Below, piece by piece: positions 3,584 through 21,591 of a stretch of 64,000 nucleotides of DNA; the first letter of the stretch is position 1, and each line of letters begins with the position of its first letter. The stretch is taken from contig CAYXHC010000001.1 in assembly GCA_964464905.1 (NCBI GenBank), positions 1,097 to 65,096 of the forward strand. Reading direction: 5' to 3'. A model generated the notes under the pieces. The model was not told the origin of the DNA, did no database searches, and saw only the letters and a list, made by a program, of their open reading frames with translations. The DNA comes from an uncultured Lachnospiraceae bacterium. Its GTDB lineage: Bacteria; Bacillota; Clostridia; Oscillospirales; CAG-272. A program made the translations under genes and the position numbers.

Positions 3584-3702
3584 CAGCATATTGCGTCTGT
3601 AATGATGAATAATGTGTGAACGTCGTGTGAATTCATGACGAAGGGGGCGGGAGGTAGTCTTTTTTTGCGATGAAGTGCCTGAATGTATTTTCGCAATAGA
3701 AA

Positions 3703-3776: not shown

Positions 3777-5255
3777 GATCTTAGAGACCGAGCTTTTCGA
3801 ACGCCTTTTCGATCTGCTTGTTGGTCTGCTTTTCTACCTTAGCGTAGAGGGAAGCGGGGTTAACGTCTACGCTCTTGAGGGAGGAGTACGCGGAGCCCCA
3901 GTTGAAGAATACGCCGAGGTCGTAGCAACGGTTAGCAAAGATGATGTCGAGCATTTCGCCGGACTCTTCGTCACGGGAGTAGCGGGACTTGAGCTGACCT
4001 TCGTAGTAAGCGGGCATAAGGATCTCGGAACCCTTGGCAGCCATAGCTTCGAGAATGATGCTGGTCTGGTAGGGGCTTGCGCAGTCCTTACCAACGGTCA
4101 TAACGCAGGAGTTAACTGCGATATAGGAGTAGTAGGTGTCAATGTCAGAGCTGTACTTGGGATAAGGAAGGATACCGAAGTCGTATTCGTTTTCACGGTA
4201 GTCGCGAACGAAAGCGATAACCTCGGTTCCGAAGAGGCACTTACCTTCCTTAAGGCAGGTGGTGATGTGCGCAACAGCGTCGGAAACGGTGGAGGTGGTG
4301 GTCCAGTTTACGTTTTCGGTGTCGCCCATGAGCTCAACGATATCTTCGAATACGTTAACGAACTGTTCGGAGTTCCAGTTGATCTTGGGTGTGCCTGCTT
4401 CGTCAAGGGAAGCGAGGGTGAGACCTGCGGATTCCCAGCTTGCAGGGAAGTTTTCGCCGTGTGTAACGAAACCGTAGATGTCGCCGGAGTCGAGAGCGCC
4501 GGAGCCGTTTTCGTCAGAGGTAGCGGTCATAGCCATTTCGTGCATCTTGTCCCAGGTCCATTCGTTGTTCTTAACGAGCTGGTAGGGATCTTCGAGGCCC
4601 TTGTACTTTTCAATGAGTTCCTTGATGAAGTAAACAGCCCAGATACATTCCTTGTCGGAAAGGGCGATGTCGCCGGAGAGCATGTAGTGCATGCCGCCGA
4701 GAGCGAGCTGCTCGGTGCAGTCGCTGTTCCACCAGGACTTGTCGAGATCGATGTAATCGAACAGGTCAAGCTCGTAGCAGAGGCCGGCGCCGGTAGCGGT
4801 GCAGGAGTACTCCATCTGGTTGAAGGTTACGCCGTAGTCGCCGGTGTTAGCTTCAACGGCAGTCTTGAAGAGGGTGTAAACTTCGGAGCCGATGCCGGAG
4901 GAAACCTCGGTGATGGTGATGTTGAGGAGGTTCTCGACAGCGTCGTTACGCAGATAAAGAGCGTTTTCGTACATGTCTTCGGAAGGCTCGTCAAAATCGG
5001 TTGCGGTGTAGTTATACGTAACTACGGTAGGAGTGAGAACTACGAATTCATAGCCGTCGAAGTCCTCTGCGGGGATCTCGAGAACGTCAGAAACGTCACC
5101 CGTGCCGGAAGTTTCAGTGCCGGTACCGGTGTTTGCAGCGTCTCCCGTGCCCTCGCCGTCATCAGCGGGATCGGAGCAGGATGCAAGCGGTACTGCGAGC
5201 ATGAGAACTACAAGCAGTAAGCTTAAGAATTTTTTCATAAATACCTCCAAGTATT
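3777..5255. repeat. Direct repeat copy 2 (1479 bp)
   Basis: See copy 1. The repeat covers the stop codon, the whole CDS, the RBS and 17 nt of 5' UTR. It does not include the promoter or the terminator. Confidence 0.9.
3781..5238 (-). CDS. Extracellular solute-binding lipoprotein, LplA/LipO-like (SBP paralog 3, duplicate copy 2)
   Basis: ORF track gives 3781..5274. I placed the start at ATG 5238 with the same GGAGGTATTT-ATG context as copy 1. The protein is identical to 2086..3543. Confidence 0.85.
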   Translation of the reverse strand: MKKFLSLLLVVLMLAVPLASCSDPADDGEGTGDAANTGTGTETSGTGDVSDVLEIPAEDFDGYEFVVLTPTVVTYNYTATDFDEPSEDMYENALYLRNDAVENLLNITITEVSSGIGSEVYTLFKTAVEANTGDYGVTFNQMEYSCTATGAGLCYELDLFDYIDLDKSWWNSDCTEQLALGGMHYMLSGDIALSDKECIWAVYFIKELIEKYKGLEDPYQLVKNNEWTWDKMHEMAMTATSDENGSGALDSGDIYGFVTHGENFPASWESAGLTLASLDEAGTPKINWNSEQFVNVFEDIVELMGDTENVNWTTTSTVSDAVAHITTCLKEGKCLFGTEVIAFVRDYRENEYDFGILPYPKYSSDIDTYYSYIAVNSCVMTVGKDCASPYQTSIILEAMAAKGSEILMPAYYEGQLKSRYSRDEESGEMLDIIFANRCYDLGVFFNWGSAYSSLKSVDVNPASLYAKVEKQTNKQIEKAFEKLGL

Positions 5256-5496
5256 TATCGTGATAGATGTACAAAATAATTTTACAACTAAACCGTTTAC
5301 AAAAGGTTAATAAATTGTGAACGAAAGATTAACATAGTGAGATAATGAATAAAAAAACAAACTAATTGAGAAAAAATCCTCTGCCAATGGTATAACTTGA
5401 CGATTATCTTAAACAAATCTTAAGGTTTTGGGTTATTTTATCTTAATAATGTTTGTGGTACAATTGAAGCGTGAAATGAAAAAGGAGACGATATCT

Positions 5497-6201
5497 ATGT
5501 ACAACATACTCGTTTGCGATGACGAAAAGGATATAGTGTCGGCGCTTGAAATATATCTTTCGGCTGAGGGATACCGCGTTTATAAGGCGTATGACGGCGA
5601 GGAGGCGATAAGCACCGTGAGAACGGAAGAGATACATCTCGTGCTTCTGGACGTTATGATGCCGATGACGGACGGGCTCCGCGCTATGAGGCGCCTGCGT
5701 GAGTTTTCAAACGTGCCCGTTTTGCTGCTGACGGCGAAAAGCGAGGAAACGGACAAAATAGCGGGACTGAACCTGGGCGCCGACGATTACATAACGAAGC
5801 CTTTCAATCCGGTTGAGGTTGCGGCGCGGGTGAAGGCGAATCTGCGTCGTTATATGCAGCTTGGCGGCGGTGACGTGAAGGCTCTTGAAAGCGTTTACAG
5901 CGTTTCCGGCATCGTGATGGACGATAAAGCTCACACCGTTACGAGAGACGGCGAGCCTATATCGCTGACTCCCACCGAATACGATATACTGAAACTGTTT
6001 CTGATGCATCCCGACGAGCTGATGACGCCGAAGCGCATTTACGGCGCGGTCTGGGGCGGCAATTTCATCGGTGGCGAGGGGACCGTTGCCGTTCACATAC
6101 GTCATCTTCGCGAAAAACTTGAATACGATCCGTCCTCACCGAGATATCTTCGCGTTGTGTGGGGGCAGGGGTATAAGCTGTCAAGCATCGTTGGTGTTTG
6201 A
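5497..6201 (+). CDS. OmpR/PhoB-family response regulator (receiver plus winged-helix domain)
   Basis: ORF track gives 5428..6201. I placed the start at ATG 5497 (MYNILVCDDEKDIV) with AAGGAG 9 nt upstream. Receiver motifs are DD, LLDVMMP.DG and LLLTAK. The C-terminal end reads ...HIRHLREKLE...VWGQGYKL, typical of OmpR-type DNA-binding domains. Confidence 0.9.
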   Translation: MYNILVCDDEKDIVSALEIYLSAEGYRVYKAYDGEEAISTVRTEEIHLVLLDVMMPMTDGLRAMRRLREFSNVPVLLLTAKSEETDKIAGLNLGADDYITKPFNPVEVAARVKANLRRYMQLGGGDVKALESVYSVSGIVMDDKAHTVTRDGEPISLTPTEYDILKLFLMHPDELMTPKRIYGAVWGGNFIGGEGTVAVHIRHLREKLEYDPSSPRYLRVVWGQGYKLSSIVGV

Positions 6202-6233: not shown

Positions 6234-8156
6234 ATGAAAATGAAAAAACTTCAATGCTACAGATGGGCGCGAGTTGCGGCAGTGCTGCTGGCGGCTGTGA
6301 CGCTTACTGTTTTCTTTGGATCTGTCTTGGGGATCGTCGCTGCAGCAGATCTGGGACTCTATACACAAAGCTATGACAACGCAAAGGAAATGGCAGTGAC
6401 GGACGTGCTCTACGGCAATGCCTACCTTATAGTGAACGCCTACCGTGACAGCTATGTGCTTGGGTATTACTCACATTCACAGGCAAAAGCGCAGATGCAG
6501 GAAGCCGTGTTCCGCAAAAATCTTGATTTTGAGCTTTGGCGCGGGGAAGATATGCTCTATTCGTCTTATTCCGGTGTCGTTCCCGAGTCTGACGCTGTGT
6601 ATGAGCTTGGCGTGGCAGAGTACGGCGAGGGTGAATACAGCGTGCGTTTTTATCTTCTCAAAAACACGAAATGTTACGACGAGATCTATTTTATGGAGCA
6701 TTGGCTCGACAAGCTTTACGAAATGCGGTTCGCGCTCATCGTGATCTGCGTTTTGTCGTTGATCCTGTCGTTTTTGACGTGGCTTTTCGCCGTTTCTGCG
6801 GCGGGCAAGCGCCTCACCCTTGACGGATACGCAAGCGGCGTGCTGACGATGCTTGACCGCGTCCCTCTTGATCTGCTGCTGGCTTTTGCTGCAGCGGCTG
6901 TGTTTGTCGAGGCTCTCATATACGACTTCAACCACGACATAGGAGACATATTTACCGCCGTGCTTCTCGGCGTGTACGTTTTCGTTGATTCCGTATTCGT
7001 CACTCTTTTGTCGATGACCGTGAAGGTGCGTGTCGTAACGAAGACGGCACTTGATAACAATATCACGGCGATGCTTCTCAGACTGGGGTATAAGCTTGTA
7101 GTCCGGATATGGGAATGTATAAAGTCGGGAGCGAGGCTGATGGTGAAAATCGTTCGGTGCGTTCCCATGTTCTGGCGGACGCTGACTGCAACGATCGCCA
7201 TGACGGTGATAAGCTTCGTTATTACGTGTCTGGCTGCCGGAAACAGCGACGCGGCAATATTCCTTTTCGTGCTGTTTTGGCTTGCGGTAACGGTGTGGCT
7301 CTGCTTCTCCGCCTGGAATATGACGATACTCCGTCGGGGCGCCAAGCGTATCGCCGAAGGTGACCTTTCCTATCGCATCGACACGAAATATCTTCTTTTT
7401 GATTTTAAGCGTCACGCCGATGACCTTAACAGTATCAAAAACGGTATGGCAACGGCGGTGGAGGAACGGATGCGCGGCGAGATGTTCAAAACCGAGCTTA
7501 TCACCAACGTGTCCCACGATATAAAGACGCCTCTGACTTCAATAATAAATTACGTGGATCTTTTGAAAAAATGCGGAGTGGAAAATGAAGAAGCAAGAGG
7601 GTATATCGAGGTGCTCGACCGCCAATCCGCGAGACTCAAAAAGCTGACGGAGGATCTTGTAACTGCCTCGAAGGCGTCGTCGGGCGTCGTTAAAGCGGAG
7701 CTTAAGCCCTGCGATCTCGGGATCTTCGTTGAACAGACGGCGGGCGAATATGAAGAAAAGCTTGCGAAGGCGGATCTTAAGCTCGTGGTGTCAACGCCCG
7801 ACTATCCCGTTACCGTGGAGGCTGACGGCAAGCTTCTCTGGCGCATCTTCGATAACCTTATGAACAACGCTTTGAAATATTCGCTTCCGGGGTCGCGGGT
7901 GTACCTGTCTCTTAAAGAAAATGAAAGAGAAGGAACGGTGACGGTGACGAATGTGTCCCGCGAGCCGATAACGCGCGACGGGGGAGAGCTTACGGAAAGG
8001 TTCGTTCGCGGCGACGATTCCCGACATACGGAAGGCTCGGGACTCGGACTCTCTATCGCCAAAAGCTTCACGGAGCTTCAGAGAGGTACTTTTGACGTAA
8101 CGGCGGACTATGATCTGTTCCGCGTGACGGTGAAGTTTCCTTTGCCGGAGGAGTGA
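6234..8156 (+). CDS. Multi-pass membrane sensor histidine kinase (HisKA plus HATPase_c)
   Basis: The H-box is ELITNVSHDIKTPLTSI. The N box is NLMNNALKYS and the G boxes are GSGLGLSIAKS. TM1 is followed by an extracytoplasmic stretch of about 130 aa. Several further hydrophobic helices precede a HAMP-like linker. The gene starts 33 nt downstream of the response regulator stop. Confidence 0.9.
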   Translation: MKMKKLQCYRWARVAAVLLAAVTLTVFFGSVLGIVAAADLGLYTQSYDNAKEMAVTDVLYGNAYLIVNAYRDSYVLGYYSHSQAKAQMQEAVFRKNLDFELWRGEDMLYSSYSGVVPESDAVYELGVAEYGEGEYSVRFYLLKNTKCYDEIYFMEHWLDKLYEMRFALIVICVLSLILSFLTWLFAVSAAGKRLTLDGYASGVLTMLDRVPLDLLLAFAAAAVFVEALIYDFNHDIGDIFTAVLLGVYVFVDSVFVTLLSMTVKVRVVTKTALDNNITAMLLRLGYKLVVRIWECIKSGARLMVKIVRCVPMFWRTLTATIAMTVISFVITCLAAGNSDAAIFLFVLFWLAVTVWLCFSAWNMTILRRGAKRIAEGDLSYRIDTKYLLFDFKRHADDLNSIKNGMATAVEERMRGEMFKTELITNVSHDIKTPLTSIINYVDLLKKCGVENEEARGYIEVLDRQSARLKKLTEDLVTASKASSGVVKAELKPCDLGIFVEQTAGEYEEKLAKADLKLVVSTPDYPVTVEADGKLLWRIFDNLMNNALKYSLPGSRVYLSLKENEREGTVTVTNVSREPITRDGGELTERFVRGDDSRHTEGSGLGLSIAKSFTELQRGTFDVTADYDLFRVTVKFPLPEE

Positions 8157-8231: not shown

Positions 8232-8261
8232 TTGACACAATGCAATTATATGTGTTATCAT
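8232..8261 (+). promoter_or_regulatory. SigA-type promoter for the first surface-protein gene
   Basis: TTGACA (8232-8237), 18 nt spacer, TATCAT (8256-8261), with TGTG immediately upstream of the -10. The conserved leader element starts about 7 nt after the -10 box. Confidence 0.65.
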
Positions 8262-8267
8262 ATAGAC

Positions 8268-8329
8268 AATAGTAGCCGGAGGGCGCCCTCCGTTATGATA
8301 GGTTCGCAGAACCTATCATAATAAACCTT
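8268..8329 (+). promoter_or_regulatory. Conserved 62-nt two-hairpin leader element, copy A
   Basis: 58 of 62 nt are identical to 12123-12184. It contains a 16-nt perfect palindrome, CGGAGGGCGCCCTCCG (8277-8292). It also contains a 13-bp perfect-stem hairpin, TTATGATAGGTTC-GCA-GAACCTATCATAA (8293-8321). No U-tract follows the hairpin. Confidence 0.8.
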
Positions 8330-8379
8330 TATGGCGGGAAGTTCCGACGGCACGAAAATTTATTTTGGAGGAACTTTTC

Positions 8380-9336: not shown

Positions 9337-9390
9337 GAGATATAAAGTTTTGATGCTTCATCAAAAACAAAAAAACATGGAGGAACTTTT

Positions 9391-10325: not shown

Positions 10326-11675
10326 ATGAAAAAGATACTTGCTCTTTTACTTGCCGTTATGATGCTGGCAGCTCTCGTTGCCTGCGACGATGGCAGTCTG
10401 CCTCCCGTTGACGGAGAAAGCGATAGCGAAGGCACGGGAACGGGCGAAGGCACCGAAACTGAGGCAGAATCCGAAACCGAAGAAGAAGACGAGGACTATG
10501 TCCCTGACTTTGAAGCGAAATACGGCGGCTGCGTCGGTGTGGGCGTTGAGTCCGGCTCCGCTTACTTCGATAACCTTAAGGTTGTGTCTAAGCAGACCGA
10601 TAAGAAGGAGCTCTACTACGATGAGCTCGAGGGCGAGCTTCCCGTTCTCACTTACGTTACGGGTGCTGAAGCCGATTGGGCTGTTGCTGTTGACCCCACC
10701 GAGGATGAAGATGAGGATGATCCCAACCACGCTCTCGGATACACGGGCTCTTCCGCTTCTATGGTGACCTTCGGTTCCTCCAACTGGAATTACTATCAGT
10801 ATTCCATGAAGGTGTATCCCGTTGACGACACCACAGTTATCGATCTTTATTTCTGCGTTACCGATGCTGATAACTATTTCGTCGTTTCCGTTGGCGGAAA
10901 CGATGGCGATTCCCTTTGCTATCAGGTAGTCGGCGGCGAGAAGACGGCTGTTGCGCCCAGTGTTTACGCTCCCGTTGAGATCGGTGAATGGACCTCCGTC
11001 GGCATTACCGTTGAACGTGAGACCATCGATATCTACATCGGCGGCACCAAGCGCTTCTCTCTCTTTAATGATGAATTCGAATACAGCATGACCATCGCAA
11101 ACAGAGCTACCGTTAACGCTCCTTACTGCGCTTCCTGGGAAACTCCCGGCTCCATTAACGACGGTATGTATCCTGACGCTACCTACGCTTCCGTTTCCAA
11201 CGGTACCGCTTACGGCTCCTGGAGCATGGCAGATATATCCGAGACCATTTCTTACGAATGGGACGAGGCTGTGACTGTTGACGGTATCGGTCTCTTCTTC
11301 TGGCAGGACAAGGAAACCCGTGAATACTGGCTCGAAAACGGCGGTATCCACTCTGCTTCCTACTATACCATCCAGTATCTCGATGAAAACGGCGACTACG
11401 TAGACGTTGAAAATGCTGTTGGTCTTGAGGTTCTCGATGACGTTATGAACCAGACCTTCTTCGATGCTGTTACCACCACGTCAATTCAGGTAACTCTCTA
11501 TAAGTTCACCGAAGAGGAGGATGCTACCTACAGATTCTCCGAATATAAGGAGTATGAAGCAAACGGCGGCGATGTCGATGCTGAAGATGCACCTACGGAT
11601 CCTTCCATCCGCGGACTCGGACTCTTTGAGTTTGAAGTGTACGCAGCAGGCACAGTTGAAAGACCCGAGGAATGA
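10326..11675 (+). CDS. Lipoprotein with an acidic linker, a ConA/LamG-like domain and a C-terminal discoidin/galactose-binding-like domain
   Basis: The signal and lipobox are MKKILALLLAVMMLAALVAC. A Glu/Asp/Thr-rich linker follows. FDNLKV and ...IDIYIGG... strands resemble DUF1080/LamG. The C-terminal half (ASWETPGSINDG...GSWS...ISYEWDEAVTVDGIGLFFWQD...) looks like an F5/8-type-C carbohydrate-binding module. Domain calls are by eye. Confidence 0.6.
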   Translation: MKKILALLLAVMMLAALVACDDGSLPPVDGESDSEGTGTGEGTETEAESETEEEDEDYVPDFEAKYGGCVGVGVESGSAYFDNLKVVSKQTDKKELYYDELEGELPVLTYVTGAEADWAVAVDPTEDEDEDDPNHALGYTGSSASMVTFGSSNWNYYQYSMKVYPVDDTTVIDLYFCVTDADNYFVVSVGGNDGDSLCYQVVGGEKTAVAPSVYAPVEIGEWTSVGITVERETIDIYIGGTKRFSLFNDEFEYSMTIANRATVNAPYCASWETPGSINDGMYPDATYASVSNGTAYGSWSMADISETISYEWDEAVTVDGIGLFFWQDKETREYWLENGGIHSASYYTIQYLDENGDYVDVENAVGLEVLDDVMNQTFFDAVTTTSIQVTLYKFTEEEDATYRFSEYKEYEANGGDVDAEDAPTDPSIRGLGLFEFEVYAAGTVERPEE

Positions 11676-11711
11676 GTTTTTCGGCAATGACGCCTACATA
11701 AAACAATAACG

Positions 11712-11743
11712 GCTGACGCGGTTTTTCCGCGTCAGCTTTTTTT
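11712..11743 (+). terminator. Rho-independent terminator
   Basis: Stem GCTGACGCGG (11712-11721), loop TTTTT, stem CCGCGTCAGC (11727-11736), followed by TTTTTTT. Confidence 0.9.
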
Positions 11744-11768
11744 GTTTGTCGGCGCGAAACTGAGGATG

Positions 11769-11828
11769 TGTGAATAAAACTGTGAATATCGTTGAATATT
11801 TTTTTGAGGGGAAATTTTGTGTTAAAAT
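11769..11828 (+). promoter_or_regulatory. Candidate activator-dependent promoter: three TG(T)GAAT direct repeats plus an extended -10
   Basis: The repeats are TGTGAAT (11769), TGTGAAT (11781) and GTTGAAT (11791), spaced 12 and 10 bp apart. TG-T-TAAAAT follows at 11820-11828, and there is no recognisable -35. A transcript from here would carry a leader of about 450 nt into the importer operon. Confidence 0.4.
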
Positions 11829-12122
11829 ATTGTTCGATAAAATGAACAAAGTATGGCGAAAAAGTCCGACTTGTGTTATGAAATATGGTGAAAAAGATGA
11901 AAAAGTGCTGTGGGGACTTGAAATATTACACCGATGTATGATAAAATAAACAAACATTAAAAATCAAAATGTATAGGTGTTTGTATTTTGTTTTTTATTG
12001 GGAAGCGATTCCTTGACGACGACGGCGTTGCCGCGTCGTTCAATGGCGCATTGTGATGCCCGGTCAGTGTATGCCGGACCGGTGCGCAACTGTCTTTCCT
12101 TGTGTATGCGTTATTATATAAA

Positions 12123-12184
12123 AATAGCAGCCGGAGGGCGCCCTCCGTTATGATAGGTTCTGCGAACCTATCATAATAAACCTT
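12123..12184 (+). promoter_or_regulatory. Conserved 62-nt two-hairpin leader element, copy B
   Basis: It has the same palindrome (12132-12147) and the same 13-bp stem (12148-12160 / 12164-12176) as copy A. The 3-nt loop is TGC here, the reverse complement of GCA in copy A. One further substitution is at 12128. Confidence 0.8.
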
Positions 12185-12222
12185 ATCATTAAGCCGGAAC
12201 GGGGGAAGGGCAGATCATTTCG

Positions 12223-12270
12223 TTAACGGAGAGCTAAGCTCTGTTAAATTATATTTTTTTATATTTTTTT
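12223..12270 (+). terminator. Terminator-like hairpin plus T-rich tract inside the importer leader (possible attenuator)
   Basis: TTAAC-GG-AGAGC (12223-12234), loop TAA, GCTCT-GTTAA (12238-12247), then ATTATATTTTTTTATATTTTTTT. It lies immediately before the RBS GGGAGGA (12271-12277). The stem is short and imperfect. Confidence 0.4.
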
Positions 12271-12285
12271 GGGAGGAACAAAAAA

Positions 12286-14748
12286 ATGACAACTTTCAAG
12301 AGACTTATGAGCGTGCTGCTTGTTCTCTGTATGTTGTCCGTAGCTTTCGTTTCCTGCTCTAACAAGGGCGGCGACGCGAAGGTCGGTAACTATACATATA
12401 ACAGCTACGCAAGCAGTCTCGGAACCAACTGGAACCCCCACACGTGGGAAGTAAGTTCCGATGACGCTATCCTCGGCTACGTAAGCTCCCCCTTCTGCAC
12501 GATGCAGGTTTCCGATTCCGAAAACGGCGTCTACCAGTGGGTGTATGAGATGGCTACCTCTATCGAGGACGTAACCAAGGATCACCAGGACGATCTCACC
12601 AAGTATGCTGTAACACTTCCCGAAGGCCAGTCGGCTTCCGAGACCACCGAAGGTTACGTTTACGAGATCAAGCTCAATGAAGATGCTAAGTGGGAAAACG
12701 GCACTCCTATCAATGCTGACACCTACATCTACTCCATGAAGGCTCTTCTTGACCCCGCTATGAAGAACTACCGCGCTAACCTCTACTATGCAGGCGAATC
12801 TGCAGTAGCAGGCGGTAATGCTTACTACTATAGCGGAGACATTGCATGGGATACCGATCTCATGGGTGCTGAAACCCTCGAAACCATCGTTAAGGGCGAA
12901 GACGGCACTTACACCACCTCTGATGGCAAGCCCATCGCTGTAGCTCTCACCTCCGCGCTTGATTGGCTCAGCGGATACGCTCTTTCCGACTACGTTGACG
13001 CTTACGGCGAAGCATACTTCGGCGTTGCAGATTACGAAACCCTTTCTGCTATGGCAGTTGGCGGCTTTGTACCCGTAACCGACGAAGTTATCGACCTTAT
13101 GGAAGGCGTTATCACCGCTGTTGAAGCTTGGGGCGAAACCAGAGCTGACGTAGCTCAGTACTTCTACTCCGGTACTCAGATGCCTGAGGCTACCTACGAC
13201 GTTGTAGGCTGCTACAAGGTTGACGATTACACCATTCGTTATGTATGCCAGACATACCTCGACAAAAACTACTTCCTCACCTCCTGCACCTCTACCTGGC
13301 TCGTATATGAAGATCTCTACGAAGCAGGAAAGGACACCACCGGTACTCTCGTAACCACTAACTACAACTCTTCTCCTGAAACCACCATGTCCTACGGTCC
13401 TTACAGAATCGAGTCCATGCAGAACGACAAGCAGATCGTTTACGTTCAGAATGAGAACTGGTACGGCTACGAAAAGGAAGGCGACTACCTCGTATCCTAC
13501 ACTCCTTACCTCGTTGACGGTAAGAACGTACAGCGCTACATGACCACCAAGATCGTTATCAACGTTATGGATAACGACGCTGCAAAGCTCGCGTTCCTTA
13601 AGGGTGACCTTGACGACTGGGCTCCCAGTGCAGACGACCTCGTTAACTACGCTATGAGCGAACAGCTCTACAAGGTTGACGAAACCTACACCATGTCCTT
13701 CTTCTTCAACACAGACGTTTCTATGCTCCAGGAGATGGATAACTCCAAGGGTAACATCAACTCCGTTGTTCTTTCAAACTACAACTTCCGTAAGGCATTC
13801 TCCCTTGCAGTTGACCGTACTGAGTTTGTAACCGCTACCGAAGGCTACAAGCCCGCTTACGCACTTATGAACAACCTCTACTTCTACGACGTATACAACG
13901 ATCCTAACTCCTCCTACAGAGGCTCTGATGAGGCTATGCAGGCAGTCTGCGATCTTTACGGCGTAAAGTACGGTGAAGGTACTCCTTATGCAACTCTCAA
14001 GGAAGCATACGACTCCATCACCGGTTACAACCTTACTGAAGCTAAGGCTCTCATGGCAACCGCTTGCCAGGAGCTCGTAGATGCAGGCCTCTACACCGCA
14101 GGTGAAGACATCACCATCCGTATCGGCTGGTCCAAGTCTGCTCTCACTTCTGCTGATAACAATCAGATCGCTCTTATGAACAAGTACATCAACGCTGCTG
14201 TTGAAGGATCCGGCTTCGGCAAGATCACTCTCGAAGGCGTTGGCTCCGTTGAAGACCGTTACGGCGACGTTCCCGCAGGTAACTTCGCAATCGGTTACGG
14301 CGCATGGGGCGGTGCTGCGTTCTATCCTTTCCGTAACTTCCAGGTTTACTGCGACACCGAGCAGTATGCAGGCCAGATCAATGAAATGGCATGCTGGGAT
14401 CCTTCCGTTGAAGAGCTCACTCTCACGGTAGACGGCAAGGAAGTAACTATGACATGGCAGGAATGGTCTCGTTCCATGACCGGTACCGGCCAGTTCGCAA
14501 CTGCAGACTTCTCCGTTAAGCTCGCTATCACGGCTCAGATGGAAAAGCTCTTCCTTGAAAAGTACTACAGAATCCCCTTCTGCGGAACTACTATATGCTC
14601 TATGCTCTCCTACAAGTGCAACTACTACACCGATGAATACAACATCATGTACGGTTTCGGCGGACTTGAGCTTATGACCTACAACTACACCGATGAAGAA
14701 TGGGCAGAATTCTGCGCTGAACAGAATGGCGATATTAAGTACGAATAA
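12286..14748 (+). CDS. ABC transporter substrate-binding lipoprotein, family 5 (Opp/Dpp-type), unusually long at 820 aa
   Basis: The signal and lipobox are MTTFKRLMSVLLVLCMLSVAFVSC. By eye the layout is family-5: ...YVYEIKLNEDAKWENGTPINADTYIYSMKALLDP..., then ...YGPYRIES...VYVQNENWYG... It is followed by Opp-type permeases and ATPases. Confidence 0.8.
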   Translation: MTTFKRLMSVLLVLCMLSVAFVSCSNKGGDAKVGNYTYNSYASSLGTNWNPHTWEVSSDDAILGYVSSPFCTMQVSDSENGVYQWVYEMATSIEDVTKDHQDDLTKYAVTLPEGQSASETTEGYVYEIKLNEDAKWENGTPINADTYIYSMKALLDPAMKNYRANLYYAGESAVAGGNAYYYSGDIAWDTDLMGAETLETIVKGEDGTYTTSDGKPIAVALTSALDWLSGYALSDYVDAYGEAYFGVADYETLSAMAVGGFVPVTDEVIDLMEGVITAVEAWGETRADVAQYFYSGTQMPEATYDVVGCYKVDDYTIRYVCQTYLDKNYFLTSCTSTWLVYEDLYEAGKDTTGTLVTTNYNSSPETTMSYGPYRIESMQNDKQIVYVQNENWYGYEKEGDYLVSYTPYLVDGKNVQRYMTTKIVINVMDNDAAKLAFLKGDLDDWAPSADDLVNYAMSEQLYKVDETYTMSFFFNTDVSMLQEMDNSKGNINSVVLSNYNFRKAFSLAVDRTEFVTATEGYKPAYALMNNLYFYDVYNDPNSSYRGSDEAMQAVCDLYGVKYGEGTPYATLKEAYDSITGYNLTEAKALMATACQELVDAGLYTAGEDITIRIGWSKSALTSADNNQIALMNKYINAAVEGSGFGKITLEGVGSVEDRYGDVPAGNFAIGYGAWGGAAFYPFRNFQVYCDTEQYAGQINEMACWDPSVEELTLTVDGKEVTMTWQEWSRSMTGTGQFATADFSVKLAITAQMEKLFLEKYYRIPFCGTTICSMLSYKCNYYTDEYNIMYGFGGLELMTYNYTDEEWAEFCAEQNGDIKYE

Positions 14749-14794
14749 TTCTGATAACTGAAATAATCATACTGAATACACCATAAAAAAGGCG

Positions 14795-14926
14795 GCAGGG
14801 GGGAATTTGATCCCCCCTGCTAACCTTGATTTTTCGGGTTGATGAAAATTGTTCCTTTTTTCGTTCGAGATCGTTCACTCCGACGTCCCGTTGGACGGGC
14901 ATTCCGAGCGGATCATCTCGAGCGAA
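14795..14926 (+). promoter_or_regulatory. Structured spacer between the SBP and permease genes (two hairpins)
   Basis: Hairpin 1 is GCAGGGGGGA (14795-14804) / TCCCCCCTGC (14811-14820). Hairpin 2 has outer stem TTCGTTCGAGAT (14860-14871) / ATCTCGAGCGAA (14915-14926, one G-U pair) and inner stem CCCGT-TGG-ACGGG. No clean U-tract follows either hairpin. Confidence 0.55.
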
Positions 14927-14984
14927 GAATCAACTATTTTTCACTCTATAATCTACCATCCCTTAAGCTAAGGAGAATAACGTT

Positions 14985-15950
14985 ATGACGAAATACGTTA
15001 TAAAAAGAATCCTTTTGATGTTCTTCACGCTGTTCGTTATTGTTACGATCGCGTTTACGCTTATAAGACTGCTCCCTCAGCAGCCGCCGGACGGACTCGA
15101 CGCGAACCAGCGAAAAGCAGTTCTTGATCGTTGGAGAGCTCTTGGTTATGAAGAGCCCATTCCTACGCAGTTTGCGATCTACCTGAAGAATATCTTCACA
15201 AACGGAGACTTCGGCACGTCCTGGTCTATTGACTACCGTGAGCCTGCCCTTGATCTTCTTTTGTCCAGACTTCTTCCCACCGTTATCGTAAACCTTTATT
15301 CACTGCTGTTCTCCATCCCGATAGGTATCGGCCTCGGCATTTATGCAGCAGTCAAGAAAAATAAATGGCAGGACTCCTTCATAAGCACTATCGTTATGGT
15401 GTTTATTTCCGTGCCCTCCTACGTTTATGCCTTCCTCGTTCAGTATTTCTTCTATTATAAGTGGAACCTTCTGCCTCAGCTCGTTTCGTCTCTTGCGGAT
15501 GCGGGCGGTTCCTGGTTCTCCTGGAAGATGTTCGTAAGTATGATCTCCCCCGTGCTTGCGCTCTCCTTCGGTGAGATCGCAGGTCTTTGCCGTTTCACAA
15601 GAGCAGAGCTTACGGAGACCCTTACCTCCGACTATATGCTGCTCGCACGCACGAAGGGACTTACCCGCGCGCAGGCAACCACCCGTCACGCACTTAAAAA
15701 TGCAATGGTGCCGATCCTCCCCATGATCATTTCCAGCTTCGTTGGCATCCTCGGCGGTTCTATGATCATCGAACAGATCTTCTCCGTTCCCGGCGTTGGT
15801 CAGCTCTATATGCGTTCCATCAATCTGCTTGACTACGACGTATTTATGGTCGATACTGTATTCTACACGTTTATCGGACTTCTTGCCGGCATCGTCGTTG
15901 ATATAAGCTACGGCTTCATCGATCCGAGAATCAGAATGGGAGAAAAATAA
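14985..15950 (+). CDS. ABC transporter permease, OppB/DppB-like
   Basis: 321 aa, six predicted TM segments. The EAA-type loop reads LARTKGLTRAQATTRHALKNAMVPILP. AAGGAG lies 9 nt upstream of the ATG. Confidence 0.9.
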   Translation: MTKYVIKRILLMFFTLFVIVTIAFTLIRLLPQQPPDGLDANQRKAVLDRWRALGYEEPIPTQFAIYLKNIFTNGDFGTSWSIDYREPALDLLLSRLLPTVIVNLYSLLFSIPIGIGLGIYAAVKKNKWQDSFISTIVMVFISVPSYVYAFLVQYFFYYKWNLLPQLVSSLADAGGSWFSWKMFVSMISPVLALSFGEIAGLCRFTRAELTETLTSDYMLLARTKGLTRAQATTRHALKNAMVPILPMIISSFVGILGGSMIIEQIFSVPGVGQLYMRSINLLDYDVFMVDTVFYTFIGLLAGIVVDISYGFIDPRIRMGEK

Positions 15951-15951
15951 T

Positions 15952-17604
15952 ATGGCAGAAAAAACCTTTGATATTAACAGTATCCCGCGTGAGAAATTTG
16001 AATTTGCCCACGAAGGCGAACGCCTTATGGACAAAAAGTTCGATGATAAGCCGATAAGCTATTTCCGCGATGCATGGATCCGCTTCCGCAAGAATAAAGC
16101 GTCCGTTGCCGCGCTTGCTATCATCGTTATTATTGCTCTTTTCTCGTTCCTTTGCCCCGTTATCTCCGGATTCAGATCTACGGAAAAGACGACGTTTGAT
16201 AAAACGTTTATGGACGTTTATTATGCAAAGAAGGGACCGAGAAACGAGTTCCTTGCCAATATCGGCATTGCCGACGGTACCGTTGAGCGCTCTTATTCCG
16301 AGAAATCTCTCGTTTACACCGTTGGTATAGGCGTTGGTGCTGCAGACGGCGATGCTCACGGTGCGACCTTTGAGGAGGGGCTTGCAAGCAAGTATCAGCC
16401 TCTCATAAGAGGCTACAGTGATCCCGTGCTTCAGCAGAATGCAAAGAAGCAGATGGTTGAATATTATTATGCCGATTCCGACGTTTATCTTGAGGTTGGC
16501 TTTATCGAAAAGTCTATCGAGCAGTCCGAATACGCAGCGCTCAAGGCGTGGGAAGAGGAGACCGGTCTTCAGGTCCTCTATCCTCTTGTTGCGAAGAACG
16601 AATTCAATGCAGACCCTGCAAACGCAAACAACTGGTATAAGACTCAGAAGAACAATCCCGTTTCCGTTGATGAAGACGGTAACGTGACAAAGATCAAGCT
16701 TGCCGATCTCCAAAGCGGTAAGGCAGTGCTCGAGGATAATTACGAGCGCGACGCTGAGGGTAATGTTCTTTATTACAAGTACTCCGGAAGCAGCGACTTT
16801 GATACTGCTATGTTCAGAGTCCGTCTCCTTTACTATAACTACTATATGTTCAACAATGGCTTCGCACCCGAATATATTTTCGGTACCGACAGCCAGGGCT
16901 ACGACCTTGCTATACGTATGGCAGATGGTATCAGACTCTCTCTGCTCGTTGCCGTTTTCGTTTCCGTTATCAATTTCGTTCTCGGCGCTATGTACGGTGC
17001 CATTGAAGGATACTACGGCGGAACCATTGATATCATTCTTGAGCGTGTGTCCGATATCCTTGCAGGTATCCCCTTCGTCGTCGTTGCGACATTGTTCCAA
17101 CTCCACCTGAAGGACCCGATGGACCTTTTCTTCAGAAATGAATTCGGTCTTAAGTCTGCAGGTCCTATCGTATGTCTTCTCTTTGCATACGTCGTAACCG
17201 GATGGATCGGCACTGCGTCCAGAGTCAGAACGCAGTTCTACCGCTTCAAGTCTCAGGAATACGTTATGGCAGCAAGAACCCTCGGCGCGAGCGACCGCCG
17301 TATCATTTGGAAGCACATTTTCCCGAACACACTCGGTACTATCATCACATCATCCGCACTCGTTATCCCCGGAGTTATCAACTCAGAAAGTATGCTCAGC
17401 TATTTGGGTATCGTTAAGCTCGGTACAGCGGAAGCAACCTCTCTCGGTACGCTTCTCTCCGATGCAAGCAGCATCTGGACGAACTACCCGCACCTTCTCA
17501 TTTTCCCCGCTCTCATACTCTCTCTCCTTATGATATGCTTCAACCTATTCGGTAACGGTCTGCGCGATGCATTTAACCCGTCCCTTCGCGGTGTGGAGGA
17601 CTAA
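15952..17604 (+). CDS. ABC transporter permease, OppC/DppC-like, with an insertion of about 240 aa between TM1 and the GTD motif
   Basis: 550 aa. TM1 spans about aa 51-72. The canonical FGTDSQGYDLAIRMADGIRLSL motif appears only at aa 310. The EAA loop is ARTLGASDRRIIWKHIFPNTLG. The start lies 1 nt after the previous stop. Confidence 0.9.
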   Translation: MAEKTFDINSIPREKFEFAHEGERLMDKKFDDKPISYFRDAWIRFRKNKASVAALAIIVIIALFSFLCPVISGFRSTEKTTFDKTFMDVYYAKKGPRNEFLANIGIADGTVERSYSEKSLVYTVGIGVGAADGDAHGATFEEGLASKYQPLIRGYSDPVLQQNAKKQMVEYYYADSDVYLEVGFIEKSIEQSEYAALKAWEEETGLQVLYPLVAKNEFNADPANANNWYKTQKNNPVSVDEDGNVTKIKLADLQSGKAVLEDNYERDAEGNVLYYKYSGSSDFDTAMFRVRLLYYNYYMFNNGFAPEYIFGTDSQGYDLAIRMADGIRLSLLVAVFVSVINFVLGAMYGAIEGYYGGTIDIILERVSDILAGIPFVVVATLFQLHLKDPMDLFFRNEFGLKSAGPIVCLLFAYVVTGWIGTASRVRTQFYRFKSQEYVMAARTLGASDRRIIWKHIFPNTLGTIITSSALVIPGVINSESMLSYLGIVKLGTAEATSLGTLLSDASSIWTNYPHLLIFPALILSLLMICFNLFGNGLRDAFNPSLRGVED

Positions 17605-17607
17605 GTC

Positions 17608-19767
17608 ATGGATAAGATTCTTGAAGTTAAAGGACTTAAAATATCGTTCCGTACAAGCAGCGGAACGCTCAAGGCGGTTCGTGATATCTCCTTCGACCTT
17701 GAGCGCGGTAAGACTCTTGCCATAGTCGGTGAATCCGGCTCCGGCAAGTCTGTTACATCAAAAGCAATTCTCGGTATTCTTGCCGGCAACTCTATTATTG
17801 AGGGTGGCGAGATACTTTACGACGGTAAGGATCTTCTTAAGATCACCGAGGATGACATGTATAAGATCCGCGGAGATAAGATCTCTATGATCTTCCAGGA
17901 TCCGCTTTCGTCTCTGAATCCCATCGTTAAGATCGGTAAACAGATCACGGAAGCAATGCTCCTTAAAAATAAGGCAAACCGCAAGGAAGCGAGAGCTGAA
18001 TTTAACAGCATCCTCGCTCTCCTTCGCGAGAATATGATTGCAGCGTCCGGTGCTGAAAATGCGTCGAAGATCGAGGAGATGATCTCAACCTTCGACAAGT
18101 TCTGCATTGAGGCGACCAAGATCGAAACTGAATATAACGAAGCTTCTTCCGTTGCAGAAGAGCTTATCTCCAACATTGAAGACTTCGTCTTTATGATGGA
18201 AAAGAAGCAGAAGCTCGACGTTAAGGCGTCTCTCAAGGAATATGCAGAAAAGCTCGCAAGAGTTAAGAATCAGTTCCTTACAGTTGATCGCGACGAGGAG
18301 CTCACACGTCTCGCGGATGAAATGCTCGCTTTCAGAGCAGAGTATAAGAAGGACGCAAACGCTGAGGGCATGACTGAAAAGGTCATTTCCGTTCTTCGTG
18401 AAGTGCAGGCGGTCCTCCGGCAGGTGCTTGCAACCGAGCGTCCCAACTTCTTCCGCATCGGCTACTATAAGTACTGCGGAAACGACATTTCTCTTAACGG
18501 TAGGACCGTAGAAGAGCTCAACGAGATCACGCTTTCGTATCTCGACGAGAATTATATGAGAGAGTTCATCTCCGTTGAGACTAAGGGCGTTGAACATTCG
18601 TATAATGTTGCCCTCGAAAAGAAGAAGGAGGTTCTCGGAAAGCTTTCTGAAGCAAAGGAATTCTATCGCGGTGATTTCAAACAGAAGGCGGCAGAAGCTC
18701 TCTGCAAGACTCTTTCCGCTGAAGTTGAAGCTTCCATTGACAAGCTGGAGCTGCTCAAGGATAGTACTGCATACACGTTCAGAAGCAGTCTCTCCGGCGC
18801 CGTTGCGCAGTACTTCCGTTTCAAGAAGCAGAATCCTCGCGAGGAAGCACGCTTCGAACGTCAGACTAAAAAGCGCGATGCTCTTATCGCTCGCGGCAAG
18901 ACTGTTGACTGGAAGGTAGTGCCCAAGGTCGTCTACGATCTTGACGAGCTCAAGGCGAACATCGTTTCCATCATTGAGCATCTTGAAGAGCGCTACAATG
19001 CATACATTGCAGGTGCCGATTCTATAGATTTCAAGACACGCAGCTCCGATATCGTAGATCACCTTAAGGAAAAGGCTTCTCAGGTGGTTTACCGTGTAAC
19101 TGCAAGTATGGCAAAGGAACAGGCTATCAAGCTTATGGACGAGGTTGGTATCCACGAGCCCCGTACCCGTTACTATCAGTATCCCTTCGAGTTTTCCGGC
19201 GGTATGCGTCAGAGAATCGTTATCGCTATTGCACTTGCGGCAAACCCCGACATTCTCATCTGCGATGAACCTACCACTGCTCTCGACGTTACCATTCAGG
19301 CACAGATACTTGAGCTTATCAATAAGCTCAAGAGAGAAAGAAACCTTTCCGTTATCTTCATCACACACGACCTTGGTGTCGTTGCGAACATGGCTGACGA
19401 CATCGCAGTTATGTACGCAGGTAAGATCGTTGAATACGGTACGGCTGACGATATTTTCTATGATCCTCGTCATCCTTACACCTGGGCGCTCCTTTCTTCT
19501 ATGCCCGATCTCGATACCAATGAAAAACTCGACGCTATCCCCGGCACACCTCCCAATATGATCTATCCCCCTGTGGGCGATGCTTTTGCAGACCGTAACA
19601 AGTACGCGCTTAAGATAGATTTCGAGGCTCAGCCTCCTATGTTTGAGGTGTCTCCCACTCATAAGGCTGCTACCTGGCTCCTGCATCCCGATGCACCAAA
19701 GGTTGAGGTGCCGAAGATCATTACGAGCCGCATCGAAAGAATGAAAAAGGCAGGAGGTAATAACTGA
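17608..19767 (+). CDS. ABC transporter ATP-binding protein, OppD-like, 719 aa with an insertion of about 360 aa in the helical subdomain
   Basis: Walker A is GESGSGKS (aa 41-48). The Q-loop is MIFQDP (aa 94-99). The signature FSGGMRQR appears only at aa 529-536. Walker B is ILICDEPTTALD. The C-terminal Opp-type extension reads PRHPYTWALLSSMP. Confidence 0.9.
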   Translation: MDKILEVKGLKISFRTSSGTLKAVRDISFDLERGKTLAIVGESGSGKSVTSKAILGILAGNSIIEGGEILYDGKDLLKITEDDMYKIRGDKISMIFQDPLSSLNPIVKIGKQITEAMLLKNKANRKEARAEFNSILALLRENMIAASGAENASKIEEMISTFDKFCIEATKIETEYNEASSVAEELISNIEDFVFMMEKKQKLDVKASLKEYAEKLARVKNQFLTVDRDEELTRLADEMLAFRAEYKKDANAEGMTEKVISVLREVQAVLRQVLATERPNFFRIGYYKYCGNDISLNGRTVEELNEITLSYLDENYMREFISVETKGVEHSYNVALEKKKEVLGKLSEAKEFYRGDFKQKAAEALCKTLSAEVEASIDKLELLKDSTAYTFRSSLSGAVAQYFRFKKQNPREEARFERQTKKRDALIARGKTVDWKVVPKVVYDLDELKANIVSIIEHLEERYNAYIAGADSIDFKTRSSDIVDHLKEKASQVVYRVTASMAKEQAIKLMDEVGIHEPRTRYYQYPFEFSGGMRQRIVIAIALAANPDILICDEPTTALDVTIQAQILELINKLKRERNLSVIFITHDLGVVANMADDIAVMYAGKIVEYGTADDIFYDPRHPYTWALLSSMPDLDTNEKLDAIPGTPPNMIYPPVGDAFADRNKYALKIDFEAQPPMFEVSPTHKAATWLLHPDAPKVEVPKIITSRIERMKKAGGNN

Positions 19768-21023
19768 TGGAAGAAATCAAAAACGGTGAAGTTCTTCTCA
19801 AAGTTGAGAACCTGTGCCAGTATTTCAAAACGAATAAGGCTGTTGACGACGTAAGTTTCGAGATCAAGAAGGGCGAGGTTTTCGGACTCGTTGGAGAATC
19901 CGGTTGCGGTAAAACGACTACCGGCCGTTCCATCATCAAGATCTACGATATCACGTCAGGCAGCATCTATTTTAAGGGGCAGCGCATCTGTGCAGGTGTT
20001 CGTTCATATCTGAACGCTATCTCCGAAGCGAGAAAGTCCACTGCAGAAAAGATCAAGTCTCTTAAGGATGAGATCAAAGCTGATCCCGCAAAGGCAGATA
20101 CGAACAAGGCACTTATCGCTGAAGCGGAAGCAGAACTCAAAAAGATCGTGGCGGAAAACCGCGCCAATATTAAGTCTGCCAATTTCGATCATAGGTATTC
20201 CGACAGAGAATACTCAAAAACGTTGGTTGAAAGGATCAAGACAGAATATAAGGAACAGCTTAAGGCGGCAGAAGGCGATGCTAAGAAGACGGCAGAGCTG
20301 AAGCGCAAATATAAGAACGATCTCCGTGTTGCAAAGAACACGAAGCTCGTTACTAAGATACAGATGATTTTCCAGGATCCCATCGCGTCTCTCAATCCCC
20401 GTATGACGGTACGAGAGATCATCGCGGAAGGTCTCGTTATCAACGGTATCAAGGACAAGGAATATATTGACGAGAAGGTATACGAGATCCTTGAGCTCGT
20501 TGGTCTCGTTCGTGAACACGCAGGTCGTTATCCTCATGAGTTCTCAGGCGGTCAGCGTCAGAGAATCGGTATCGCCCGTTCCGTTATTATGCGTCCCGAT
20601 CTTCTTATCGCAGACGAGCCTATCTCCGCTCTTGACGTTTCCATTCAGGCTCAGATCATCAACCTTTTGAATGATCTTCGTCAGCAGCTCAGTCTTACCA
20701 TTCTCTTCATCGCACACGATCTTTCAGTCGTTAAGTATTTCTCCGATAGGATCGGTGTTATGTACTACGGTAAGATGGTAGAGCTTGCAACCTCCGATGA
20801 GCTTTTCGCGCATCCGTTGCATCCTTATACTCGTTCGCTTCTTTCTGCTATTCCGCTTCCGGATCCCCATTCGGAAAAGAACCGCACGAGGATCGTATAT
20901 AATTCTCTCGCGGAACACGATTACAGTGTTGATAAGCCCTCTATGAGAGAGATCACTCCCGGTCACTTCGTTTACTGTAACGATGCTGAGGAAACACGTT
21001 ACAAGAAGGAGCTTGGTCTGTGA
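19767..21023 (+). CDS. ABC transporter ATP-binding protein, OppF-like, 418 aa with an insertion of about 110 aa between Walker A and the Q-loop
   Basis: Walker A is GESGCGKT (aa 43-50). The Q-loop QMIFQDP appears only at aa 199-205. The signature is FSGGQRQR and Walker B is LLIADEPISALD. The ATG overlaps the upstream TGA by 1 nt. Confidence 0.9.
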   Translation: MEEIKNGEVLLKVENLCQYFKTNKAVDDVSFEIKKGEVFGLVGESGCGKTTTGRSIIKIYDITSGSIYFKGQRICAGVRSYLNAISEARKSTAEKIKSLKDEIKADPAKADTNKALIAEAEAELKKIVAENRANIKSANFDHRYSDREYSKTLVERIKTEYKEQLKAAEGDAKKTAELKRKYKNDLRVAKNTKLVTKIQMIFQDPIASLNPRMTVREIIAEGLVINGIKDKEYIDEKVYEILELVGLVREHAGRYPHEFSGGQRQRIGIARSVIMRPDLLIADEPISALDVSIQAQIINLLNDLRQQLSLTILFIAHDLSVVKYFSDRIGVMYYGKMVELATSDELFAHPLHPYTRSLLSAIPLPDPHSEKNRTRIVYNSLAEHDYSVDKPSMREITPGHFVYCNDAEETRYKKELGL

Positions 21024-21555: not shown

Positions 21556-21591
21556 CTGAAAACAGAGAAAAACTCTGCTGAGGTGTTGGCT

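Follow-up and report, generated by a model that had tools for sequence, protein, structure and literature searches.

What controls an importer operon whose first gene lies 610 nt behind the preceding open reading frame (ORF)? The question arises from a 64,000-nt stretch of DNA of an uncultured Lachnospiraceae bacterium (contig CAYXHC010000001.1; the whole stretch is called the window), in which an Opp-type ATP-binding cassette (ABC) importer operon starts with the gene of a lipoprotein, the substrate-binding protein (SBP). A first-pass annotation had described the spacer as a regulated leader working by attenuation or processing, and every feature that it listed is indeed present where it was placed. 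The 610 nt, however, had been counted from the upstream terminator; they extend from the stop codon of the 449-aa ORF (11675) to the SBP ATG (12286), and the terminator end (~11747) is ~540 nt away from the ATG. Our best explanation, which we give an even chance, is a composite region: a conserved promoter with control at initiation, followed by a modular leader of ~332 nt that would act on stability, processing or translation, without conditional termination. The spacer is framed by the following features.

11711-11747, plus strand: intrinsic terminator behind the upstream 449-aa gene; GC-rich stem of 11 bp followed by a T run; d-score +63 to +68 (d'Aubenton-Carafa function, applied to all single hairpins)
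11830-11917, plus strand: conserved block 5' of the -35 element, containing GGCGAAAAAGTCCGA and the repeats TGAAATA, TGAAAAA and TGAAAAA at 11879, 11889 and 11898
11918-11947, plus strand: sigma-A-type promoter TTGAAA-N18-TGaTAAAAT; transcription predicted to start near 11954
12286-14748, plus strand: 820-aa SBP_bac_5 lipoprotein (SBP)
12286-21023, plus strand: Opp-type ABC importer operon, SBP gene first

Syntenic or orthologous loci were obtained via protein look-ups. The predicted leader lengths listed with them were calculated with the transcription start set ~7 nt past the -10 element.

Window: predicted leader 332 nt
L009 (GCA_045586225.1): SBP in the same 90% protein cluster as that of the window; coding DNA 83-90% identical; predicted leader 247 nt
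L001 (GCA_045588245.1): SBP 84% identical to the window; predicted leader 235 nt
L002 and L010-L012 (Logan assemblies): SBP ~74% identical to the window; predicted leader of L002, 156 nt
L007 (Logan assembly): SBP 69% identical to the window; predicted leader 120 nt

The leaders of L004, L005 and L008 (SBPs 66-69% identical) are unrelated to the window leader and were unusable for covariation. An exact-protein look-up with the window SBP found no record.

The site at 11918-11947 is the best promoter-like sequence of the spacer, with 10 of 12 consensus matches plus the TG. The arrangement TTGAAA-N18-TG-n-TAAAAT is common to five lineages, namely the window, L009, L001, L002/L010 and L007 (SBPs 69-100% identical), and takes the variant form N17-TAAGAT in L007. 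The site thus combines what we expect of a sigma-A promoter, that is, -35 and -10 hexamers, a spacer of 17 ± 1 and conservation in orthologous loci. The upstream block (11830-11917) is 92% identical in L009 and can be aligned in part with L001 and L002. Since the conserved -10/-35 promoter is located 340 nt 5' of the SBP ATG and the leader folds far more stably than shuffled sequence (z = -5.2), the SBP gene is very probably preceded by a long structured 5' untranslated region (UTR) instead of a plain arrangement of promoter and ribosome-binding site (RBS).

Other candidates in this region were rejected. A proximal promoter within the RBS-near hairpin (TTAGCA-N16-19-TGtTAAAT) has a variable spacing, and its -10 element is lost in L009 (TAAACA). 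A 35-codon ORF (11842-11949), considered as a leader peptide, is cut off by a stop at its fifth codon in L009 and lies in another frame in L001. A 67-aa ORF on the minus strand of L009 has no full-length counterpart in the window, where the minus-strand ORF in that place has just 41 aa.

Does transcription start further upstream? The first-pass annotation had pointed to activator-type repeats and an extended -10 element, which lie in a gene cluster with a two-component system.

11769-11797, plus strand: direct repeats TGTGAAT, TGTGAAT and GTTGAAT at 11769, 11781 and 11791; start-to-start spacing 12 and 10
11820-11828, plus strand: extended -10-like TGTTAAAAT with no usable -35
5497-6201: OmpR/PhoB-family response regulator; below every NCBIfam equivalog cut-off
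6234-8156: histidine kinase, next to the response regulator

The repeats are present and resemble a direct-repeat motif at other promoters of the two-component-system cluster. Across the window, TGTGAA/TTCACA has 32 matches, about the expected number, and is not enriched overall. Eight of the 32, all on the plus strand, fall into four cluster intergenic regions (2.7 kb; ~1.4 expected), at 1900, 1931, 1953, 3615, 3626, 5316, 11769 and 11781. L001 has the motif as well, at 187-203 and 5085-5101. The exact pattern TGTGAA-N5-7-[TG]GTGA[AC] occurs four times in the 163 kb of window and loci, always intergenic in the cluster or in its L001 counterpart; by our own arithmetic, which assumes equal base frequencies, ~0.2 would be expected. 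The clearest sites have the form TTCACA-N5-TTCACA-N5-TTnAnC-N20-(-10) and precede two minus-strand SBP_bac_8-like genes of the window (3604-3631, 5305-5333) and the L001 orthologue (187-203). The third SBP_bac_8-like gene has dispersed TGTGAA hexamers instead (upstream of 1835; 1900-1960). At the three TTCACA-type sites, the repeats have an 11-bp period and end 20 nt before the -10 element. The RBS contexts of the three paralogous SBP_bac_8-like genes (starts near 1835, 3543 and 5237) are near-identical.

A Pho-box-like arrangement is what one expects for an OmpR/PhoB-type regulator, and PhoP of B. subtilis binds TT(A/T/C)ACA repeats ~11 bp apart. The cluster shares with such PhoP, PhoB and OmpR boxes the TTCACA hexamers at 10-12 bp, the three units per site, the OmpR/PhoB-family regulator encoded nearby and the recurrence in four intergenic regions. 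The TTCACA repeats at the SBP_bac_8-like genes are probably the regulon signature of the adjacent two-component system. Having at least two direct repeats about one helical turn apart and a motif shared with other promoters near the regulator gene, the repeats at 11769-11797 qualify as plausible response-regulator boxes that may have a role at the SBP gene. Unlike the known boxes, they point in the reverse direction with respect to the gene and lie at a large distance from the conserved promoter, and regulator binding to them is putative.

Alternatively, these boxes and the extended -10 element might form a regulator-dependent promoter that dominates under two-component control, giving a ~450-nt leader and leaving 11918-11947 a secondary role. 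The TGTGAA motif is common to other cluster promoters, dinucleotide shuffling of the 610-nt spacer produced a repeat triple of such kind in 40 of 5000 sequences (post-hoc p ~0.008), and the layout parallels the lectin-gene promoter of L001, TGTGAA-N5-TGTGAC-N18-TTGACA-N17-TAAAAT, in that the first box is 54 nt from the -10 element (58 nt in L001). However, the block with repeats and distal -10 (11748-11829) is only 54% identical in L009, where the -10 element is destroyed (it reads CTTTGAAAT) and the repeats have degenerated to TTTGAAT and TATGAAT, with the third lost. The whole module is absent from the SBP spacers of L001, L002 and L007, it has no -35, and its boxes are opposite in orientation to the three clear TTCACA promoters. 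We regard a dominant promoter at this position as rather unlikely. Thus, the extended -10 element exists without a -35, as had been noted, but as the main promoter it is not conserved even in L009, which makes 11918-11947 the more likely site; TGTTAAAAT and the TGTGAAT repeats are possibly a lineage-specific distal promoter.

To which parts of the leader does conservation extend? Identities to L009 were determined block by block, with the value for coding DNA as the yardstick.

11830-11917, plus strand, upstream block: 92%
11918-11947, plus strand, promoter: 90%
11948-11998, plus strand, start of the leader: 88%
11999-12096, plus strand: 50%
12097-12180, plus strand, 84-nt block: absent
12181-12222, plus strand: 75%
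12223-12247, plus strand, hairpin: 96%
12248-12285, plus strand, T tract and RBS: 95%

The promoter region and both leader ends are conserved at least as well as coding DNA. Within the leader, conservation is limited to the first ~50 nt, the stem-loop at 12223-12247 and the segment of U run, Shine-Dalgarno (SD) sequence and A run. The middle is a chain of hairpins that varies by lineage and is evolutionarily fluid.

11950-11997, plus strand: A/U-rich stem-loop(s) at the predicted leader 5' end; 88% identical to L009; d-score -9, not a terminator
12015-12041, plus strand: GC-rich hairpin GACGACGACGGC-GTT-GCCGCGTCGTTC; lineage-variable, in the region 50% identical to L009
12061-12083, plus strand: hairpin CCGGTC...GACCGG; CCGGAC...GTCCGG in L009
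12089-12214, plus strand: helix ACUGUCUUUCC / GGGAAGGGCAG (12089-12099 with 12203-12214), prediction only; its apical loop holds the 84-nt insertion

Hairpins start at most 10 nt from the predicted transcription start, and the L009 leader has the same modular hairpin layout. The local hairpin CCGGTC...GACCGG had been recognized in the first-pass annotation; one of its pairs is kept in L009 through a change on both sides. RNAfold predicted the helix 12089-12099/12203-12214 with the insert, without the insert and in L009. The second lectin-like gene upstream (window 9339-9361) also has a perfect hairpin, GTTTTGATG-CTT-CATCAAAAAC, which opens its 5' UTR right past the -10 element.

The 84-nt block corresponds to what had been called copy B of a conserved leader element. 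The repeat is real, but it is not a conserved module.

12097-12180, plus strand: copy B, 84-nt lineage-specific insertion with a -10-like TATTAT (12112-12117) and two palindromes
12132-12147, plus strand: 16-bp palindrome of copy B, CGGAGGGC/GCCCTCCG
12148-12176, plus strand: 13-3-13 palindrome of copy B, TTATGATAGGTTC-TGC-GAACCTATCATAA
8247-8329, plus strand: copy A, from which copy B probably derives; belongs to the first lectin-like gene and comprises its -10 element TATCAT (8256-8261) and the initial ~60 nt of its 5' UTR

Positions 12123-12184 and 8268-8329 are 93.5% identical over 62 nt (E = 1e-20), and both palindromes are found in the window only at the copy A and copy B sites (chance expectation 0.05 and 0.00). 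L009 aligns through the leader minus exactly these 84 nt and reads CTGTCTT/CCTTATC at the junction; in the window, CCTT stands at both junctions of copy B. The copy B sequence is also absent from the leaders of L001, L002 and L007. The homology between the copies exceeds the palindromes, reaching leftward through the spacer and -10 element of the first lectin-like gene promoter (TATGyGTTATyATATA) and rightward into ATAAACCTT. We conclude that copy B is a segmental duplicate of the copy A region and not an independent mobile unit. The near-identity of A and B reflects recency and not purifying selection. The copy A palindromes, which are flanked by TATCATA direct repeats (8256, 8316), have no counterpart in the paralogous promoters, either in L001 or in the window. 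In the second palindrome (8293-8321 versus 12148-12176), the arms are identical and the loop is GCA in copy A and TGC, its reverse complement, in copy B, which points to a hairpin-mediated flip (inversion).

Small palindromic repeats such as REP/BIME, Correia, RUP and BOX are known to land in 5' UTRs. Copy B is similar to them as a hairpin-forming leader insertion of ~80 nt with a 4-bp junction repeat (CCTT) and a -10-like hexamer. A mobile palindromic repeat (REP or MITE-like) should occur in many dispersed copies with defined ends, but only two copies are present in 64 kb, and copy B contains flanks of the copy A locus. No true match was found in 185,579 species-representative genomes (source genome not included), metagenomes, viral contigs or plasmids; the species-representative scan for the second palindrome gave one unrelated AT-rich terminator palindrome. 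Copy B is better termed an ectopic segmental duplication.

The identical stems at the two sites, both just 3' of -10-like hexamers, might also be read as DNA operators through which a dimeric factor controls the lectin-like gene together with the importer, or copy B as an extra internal promoter. We consider this very improbable. Neither palindrome is present in relatives that have this gene cluster, the recent segmental copy accounts for the identity including the non-palindromic flanks, copy B has no -35, and no other copy occurs in the species-representative genomes. Moreover, the sole local regulator is of the OmpR/PhoB type, a family that binds direct and not inverted repeats.

Unrelated leaders contain palindromes of their own. 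That of the L008 SBP orthologue (69% identity) carries two adjacent perfect ones (2894-2937), a 26-bp palindrome with the core TGCAAAGGGCC/GGCCCTTTGCA and then TCTTGCTGT/ACAGCAAGA, and another unrelated pair is located at 7868-7915 of L001. Tandem perfect hairpins seem to arise repeatedly in such SBP leaders. For the first lectin-like gene, a leader pairing is predicted between GGGAAGUUCC (8336-8345) and GGAACUUUUC (8370-8379) that would cover the 3' half of the SD; in this folding model, the pairing may dampen translation.

Does the leader end in an attenuator? The first-pass annotation had called the hairpin and T tract next to the RBS terminator-like.

12223-12247, plus strand: conserved stem-loop TTAACGGAG-AGCTAAG-CTCTGTTAA, 9 bp; motif GTTArCrGAGAG...CTCTGTTAAA
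12262-12288, plus strand: weak A-U hairpin, U7 (12264-12270) paired with A7 (12280-12286); SD GGGAGGAA in the loop, AUG (12286-12288) in the stem

The 23-nt T-rich tract (12248-12270) adjoins the SD GGGAGG (12271-12276). If hairpin and tract were a conditional intrinsic terminator, a ligand, a protein or an alternative upstream pairing would set the readthrough into the importer. A loose consensus scan does flag the hairpin as terminator-like, and the 3' arm of the first copy B palindrome (12140-12150) is 91% complementary to the hairpin 5' arm, which gives it the look of an antiterminator. The d-scores, however, are -30 to -45 in all five orthologues, compared with +48 to +68 for three real terminators of neighbouring genes, +8.7 for the stem-loop 3' of the SBP gene (14790-14826) and +2.5 for the best leader hairpin. 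An intrinsic-terminator attenuator, as it serves riboswitches, T-boxes or protein antiterminators as expression platform, has a GC-rich stem, an immediate U tract and a score in the genuine range, and no leader hairpin exceeds +3. The RBS-near stem contains only 3 G-C pairs. The U run follows it after 6 nt in the window and after 11-12 nt in L001, is overall 6 to >15 nt away or missing, is non-adjacent in three lineages, and does not adjoin the stem in L002 and L007. A conserved, mutually exclusive antiterminator pairing was not found in the leaders; the sole complement (12140-12150) resides inside the 84-nt insertion that L009, L001, L002 and L007 lack.

The T run beside the RBS has an explanation without termination, since the second U7 run is perfectly complementary to the A7 run between SD and AUG. 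The resulting hairpin folds near-identically in the window, L009 and L001, with minimum free energies of -5.9, -5.9 and -5.7 kcal/mol, respectively. The other lineages differ: in L002, the SD pairs with a sequence that contains UCC, and in L007 the stem is a weaker UUAUU/AAUAA.

One further argument for attenuation comes from the xyl-doc cluster of Clostridium (Ruminiclostridium) papyrosolvens and cellulolyticum, which is linked to a two-component system and has a structured 5' UTR of >400 nt that is >85% conserved among species; reporters showed that it blocks downstream expression (PMC5815224). Both systems are polysaccharide-utilisation clusters beside a two-component system, with a predicted sigma-A promoter several hundred nt upstream and a leader that has perfect stem-loops and belongs to no known riboswitch family. 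In xyl-doc, however, the whole 5' UTR is conserved, whereas here only the leader ends are, as known from sequence alone, and the likeness that we claim is one of layout.

Searches for known leaders were likewise negative. Rfam 15 gave no hit at the gathering score, and thus no leader or riboswitch match, in the window or in four orthologous loci (L001, L002, L007, L009). In a permissive search (E < 10) of the spacer, the best hit (E 0.047) fell on the terminator of the upstream gene, and no family was accepted. This negative carries some weight because the same permissive mode recovered a T-box leader elsewhere in the window (29013-29210, minus strand; RF00230, 74.5 bits, E = 2e-16). The T-box, 5' of a serine acetyltransferase / Rce1-like / CysS gene string, scores under the 93-bit gathering score and was missed by the default scan for that reason.

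With negative d-scores, a distant or missing U run and a complement confined to the insertion, conditional intrinsic termination is unsupported; termination attenuation is unlikely, and we judge a conditional terminator at 12223-12247 quite improbable. Of the earlier description, hairpin and T tract remain, and so does a long structured 5' UTR, but neither the terminator-like character, which came from the loose scan only, nor attenuation by termination.

What, then, is the RBS-near stem-loop conserved for? Each of the loci (window, L009, L001, L002, L010-L012 and L007) has a single copy of the motif GTTArCrGAGAG...CTCTGTTAAA, which always precedes the SBP gene and lies 18-23 nt 5' of the SD. 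RNAalifold gave a 9-bp consensus stem with only one-sided changes among six distinct sequences. As read from the sequences and not from tool output, the inner register AGAGC/GCTCT becomes AGAGT/ACTCT in L002. The stem-loop might be the site of a trans-acting factor (an RNA-binding protein or a small RNA (sRNA)) that controls translation or processing of the SBP message, and thus a new clade-restricted motif. Its sequence is kept down to 69% SBP identity while other leader parts are no longer alignable, its number per locus is constant, and its distance to the SD stays within the range given above. On the other hand, the six sequences offer no both-sided pair change, no candidate binding protein is encoded nearby, and there is no second target in 64 kb, where near matches to CTCTGTTAAAT (29272, 29299) are at chance level. 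Scans of public collections gave no further members: the first metagenome scan had 0 hits, and the second had 16, all unrelated, none with the GTTArC 5' arm or the AU-rich spacer and most apparently in coding-like sequence. On balance, we find a trans-factor site doubtful.

We return to the composite region, which would work as follows. Transcription of the 449-aa gene would stop at the strong terminator 11711-11747, whose stem is also conserved in L009. The importer operon would be transcribed mainly from the sigma-A promoter 11918-11947, starting near 11954, and initiation is probably tuned by factors on the upstream block 11830-11917. In the window lineage, the TGTGAAT boxes 11769-11797 may provide a further site of action for the neighbouring OmpR/PhoB-type regulator. 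The ~332-nt 5' UTR would be a chain of independent stem-loops with selection on its two ends only, the 5' end being the A/U hairpin and the 3' end the RBS-near stem-loop, the AU-rich spacer and the weak hairpin that presents the SD in its loop. In the fluid interior, the loop of an existing helix would have received 84 nt copied from the first lectin-like gene, with the hairpin pair of its promoter/5' UTR. The hairpins would act after transcription and not by conditional intrinsic termination: they may protect the SBP message from 5'-end-dependent decay, guide endonucleolytic processing in the AU-rich tract, or both, and also keep upstream structure off the RBS region. These hairpins and the strong stem-loop 3' of the SBP gene would jointly favour a high SBP output.

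This role has parallels. Firmicutes mRNAs are stabilized by 5'-terminal stem-loops and strong SD sequences, as in the aprE leader, ermC, cryIIIA STAB-SD and hbs. Common to these and to the importer leader are a hairpin near the (here predicted) 5' end, a very strong SD (GGGAGGAA) and a structured 5' UTR on an abundant message for a secreted protein or lipoprotein. The difference is that the hairpin position refers here to a predicted 5' end only, and stabilization is putative. A second parallel involves the stem-loop downstream of the SBP gene.

14790-14826, plus strand: stem-loop that separates the SBP gene from the first permease gene, GCAGGGGGGA...TCCCCCCTGC; dG -25 kcal/mol, poor U tract

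In clostridial ABC importer operons, stem-loops set the stoichiometry between SBP and translocator (PMC9045158), and selective RNA processing and stabilization have been described in cellulolytic clostridia (PMC4423207). Here, too, the SBP gene comes first and is directly followed by a GC-rich stem-loop that is strong but has a poor U tract, so that hairpins flank the SBP cistron. By analogy, 14790-14826 could be a weak internal terminator or a 3' stabilizer and fits the "internal terminator" class of such importers (PMC9045158). The published cases concern 3' and intergenic stem-loops, whereas the role of the 5' hairpins here is an extrapolation.

Several points weigh against the composite explanation. 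The transcription start and any processing sites in it are predictions. The TGTGAAT boxes lie ~170 nt 5' of the conserved promoter, in addition to facing the opposite way compared with the clear TTCACA promoters. With one-sided substitutions only, the conservation of the RBS-near sequence could equally indicate a protein or sRNA binding site, and a stabilizer role alone would not need 11 invariant nt (CTCTGTTAAA plus flanks). Finally, by analogy with the stem-loop 5' UTR of C. papyrosolvens, which blocks expression, the leader might have an attenuator-like effect without a canonical terminator (PMC5815224).

Judged by the names borne by SBP homologues, the genome is Oscillospiraceae-like and belongs to the Clostridia. 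The wider locus starts with the three minus-strand SBP_bac_8-like lipoprotein genes, followed by the two-component system. Located 3' of the histidine kinase are two secreted ConA-like (Laminin_G_3) genes and the 449-aa gene, all three equipped with a promoter and a terminator of their own, and the importer operon is followed by a GH43/CBM6 gene (21583-23013), which makes arabinoxylan or arabino-oligosaccharides the first candidates for an inducer. Because of this neighbourhood, including the GH43/CBM6 and ConA-like genes, the importer substrate is probably an oligosaccharide rather than a peptide. The 449-aa protein has no Pfam domain (window 10326-11675; L001 6173-7522; L009 1844-3193; L010 2802-4151), and its sole match is a weak one (E = 2e-8) to the C-terminal part of the beta-L-arabinobiosidase HypBA2. 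Its gene is always directly 5' of the SBP gene, even in L010-L012, where the two-component system and the lectin-like genes are missing.

Two more far-reaching readings can be formulated, to which we lend little weight. First, the invariant stem-loop GUUArCrGAGAG...CUCUGUUAAA, 18-23 nt before the SD, would be a new clade-specific cis-regulatory RNA of Oscillospiraceae oligosaccharide importers that is read by a factor or a ribonuclease. Second, regulatory rewiring would be in progress: promoter and 5' UTR modules of the two-component regulon, namely the 84-nt cassette of hairpins and the boxes TGTGAAT, would have been copied into the importer leader, bringing the control of that system with them.

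The locus also teaches caution in two respects: two near-identical "conserved elements" in one genome may be a recent segmental copy, as they are here, and a hairpin plus T run is in this case not a terminator. The 84-nt copy represents a clean natural case of the transfer of a promoter/UTR module between co-located genes, and its flipped hairpin loop may be a mark of palindrome-driven template switching. If the RBS-near stem-loop is a factor-binding or processing site, it would constitute a new small RNA motif. The regulatory region as a whole appears fairly ordinary in kind, though well suited to dissection, and with its promoter, boxes and selected hairpins it provides a concrete map of the probable control of an oligosaccharide importer in gut or rumen Oscillospiraceae.

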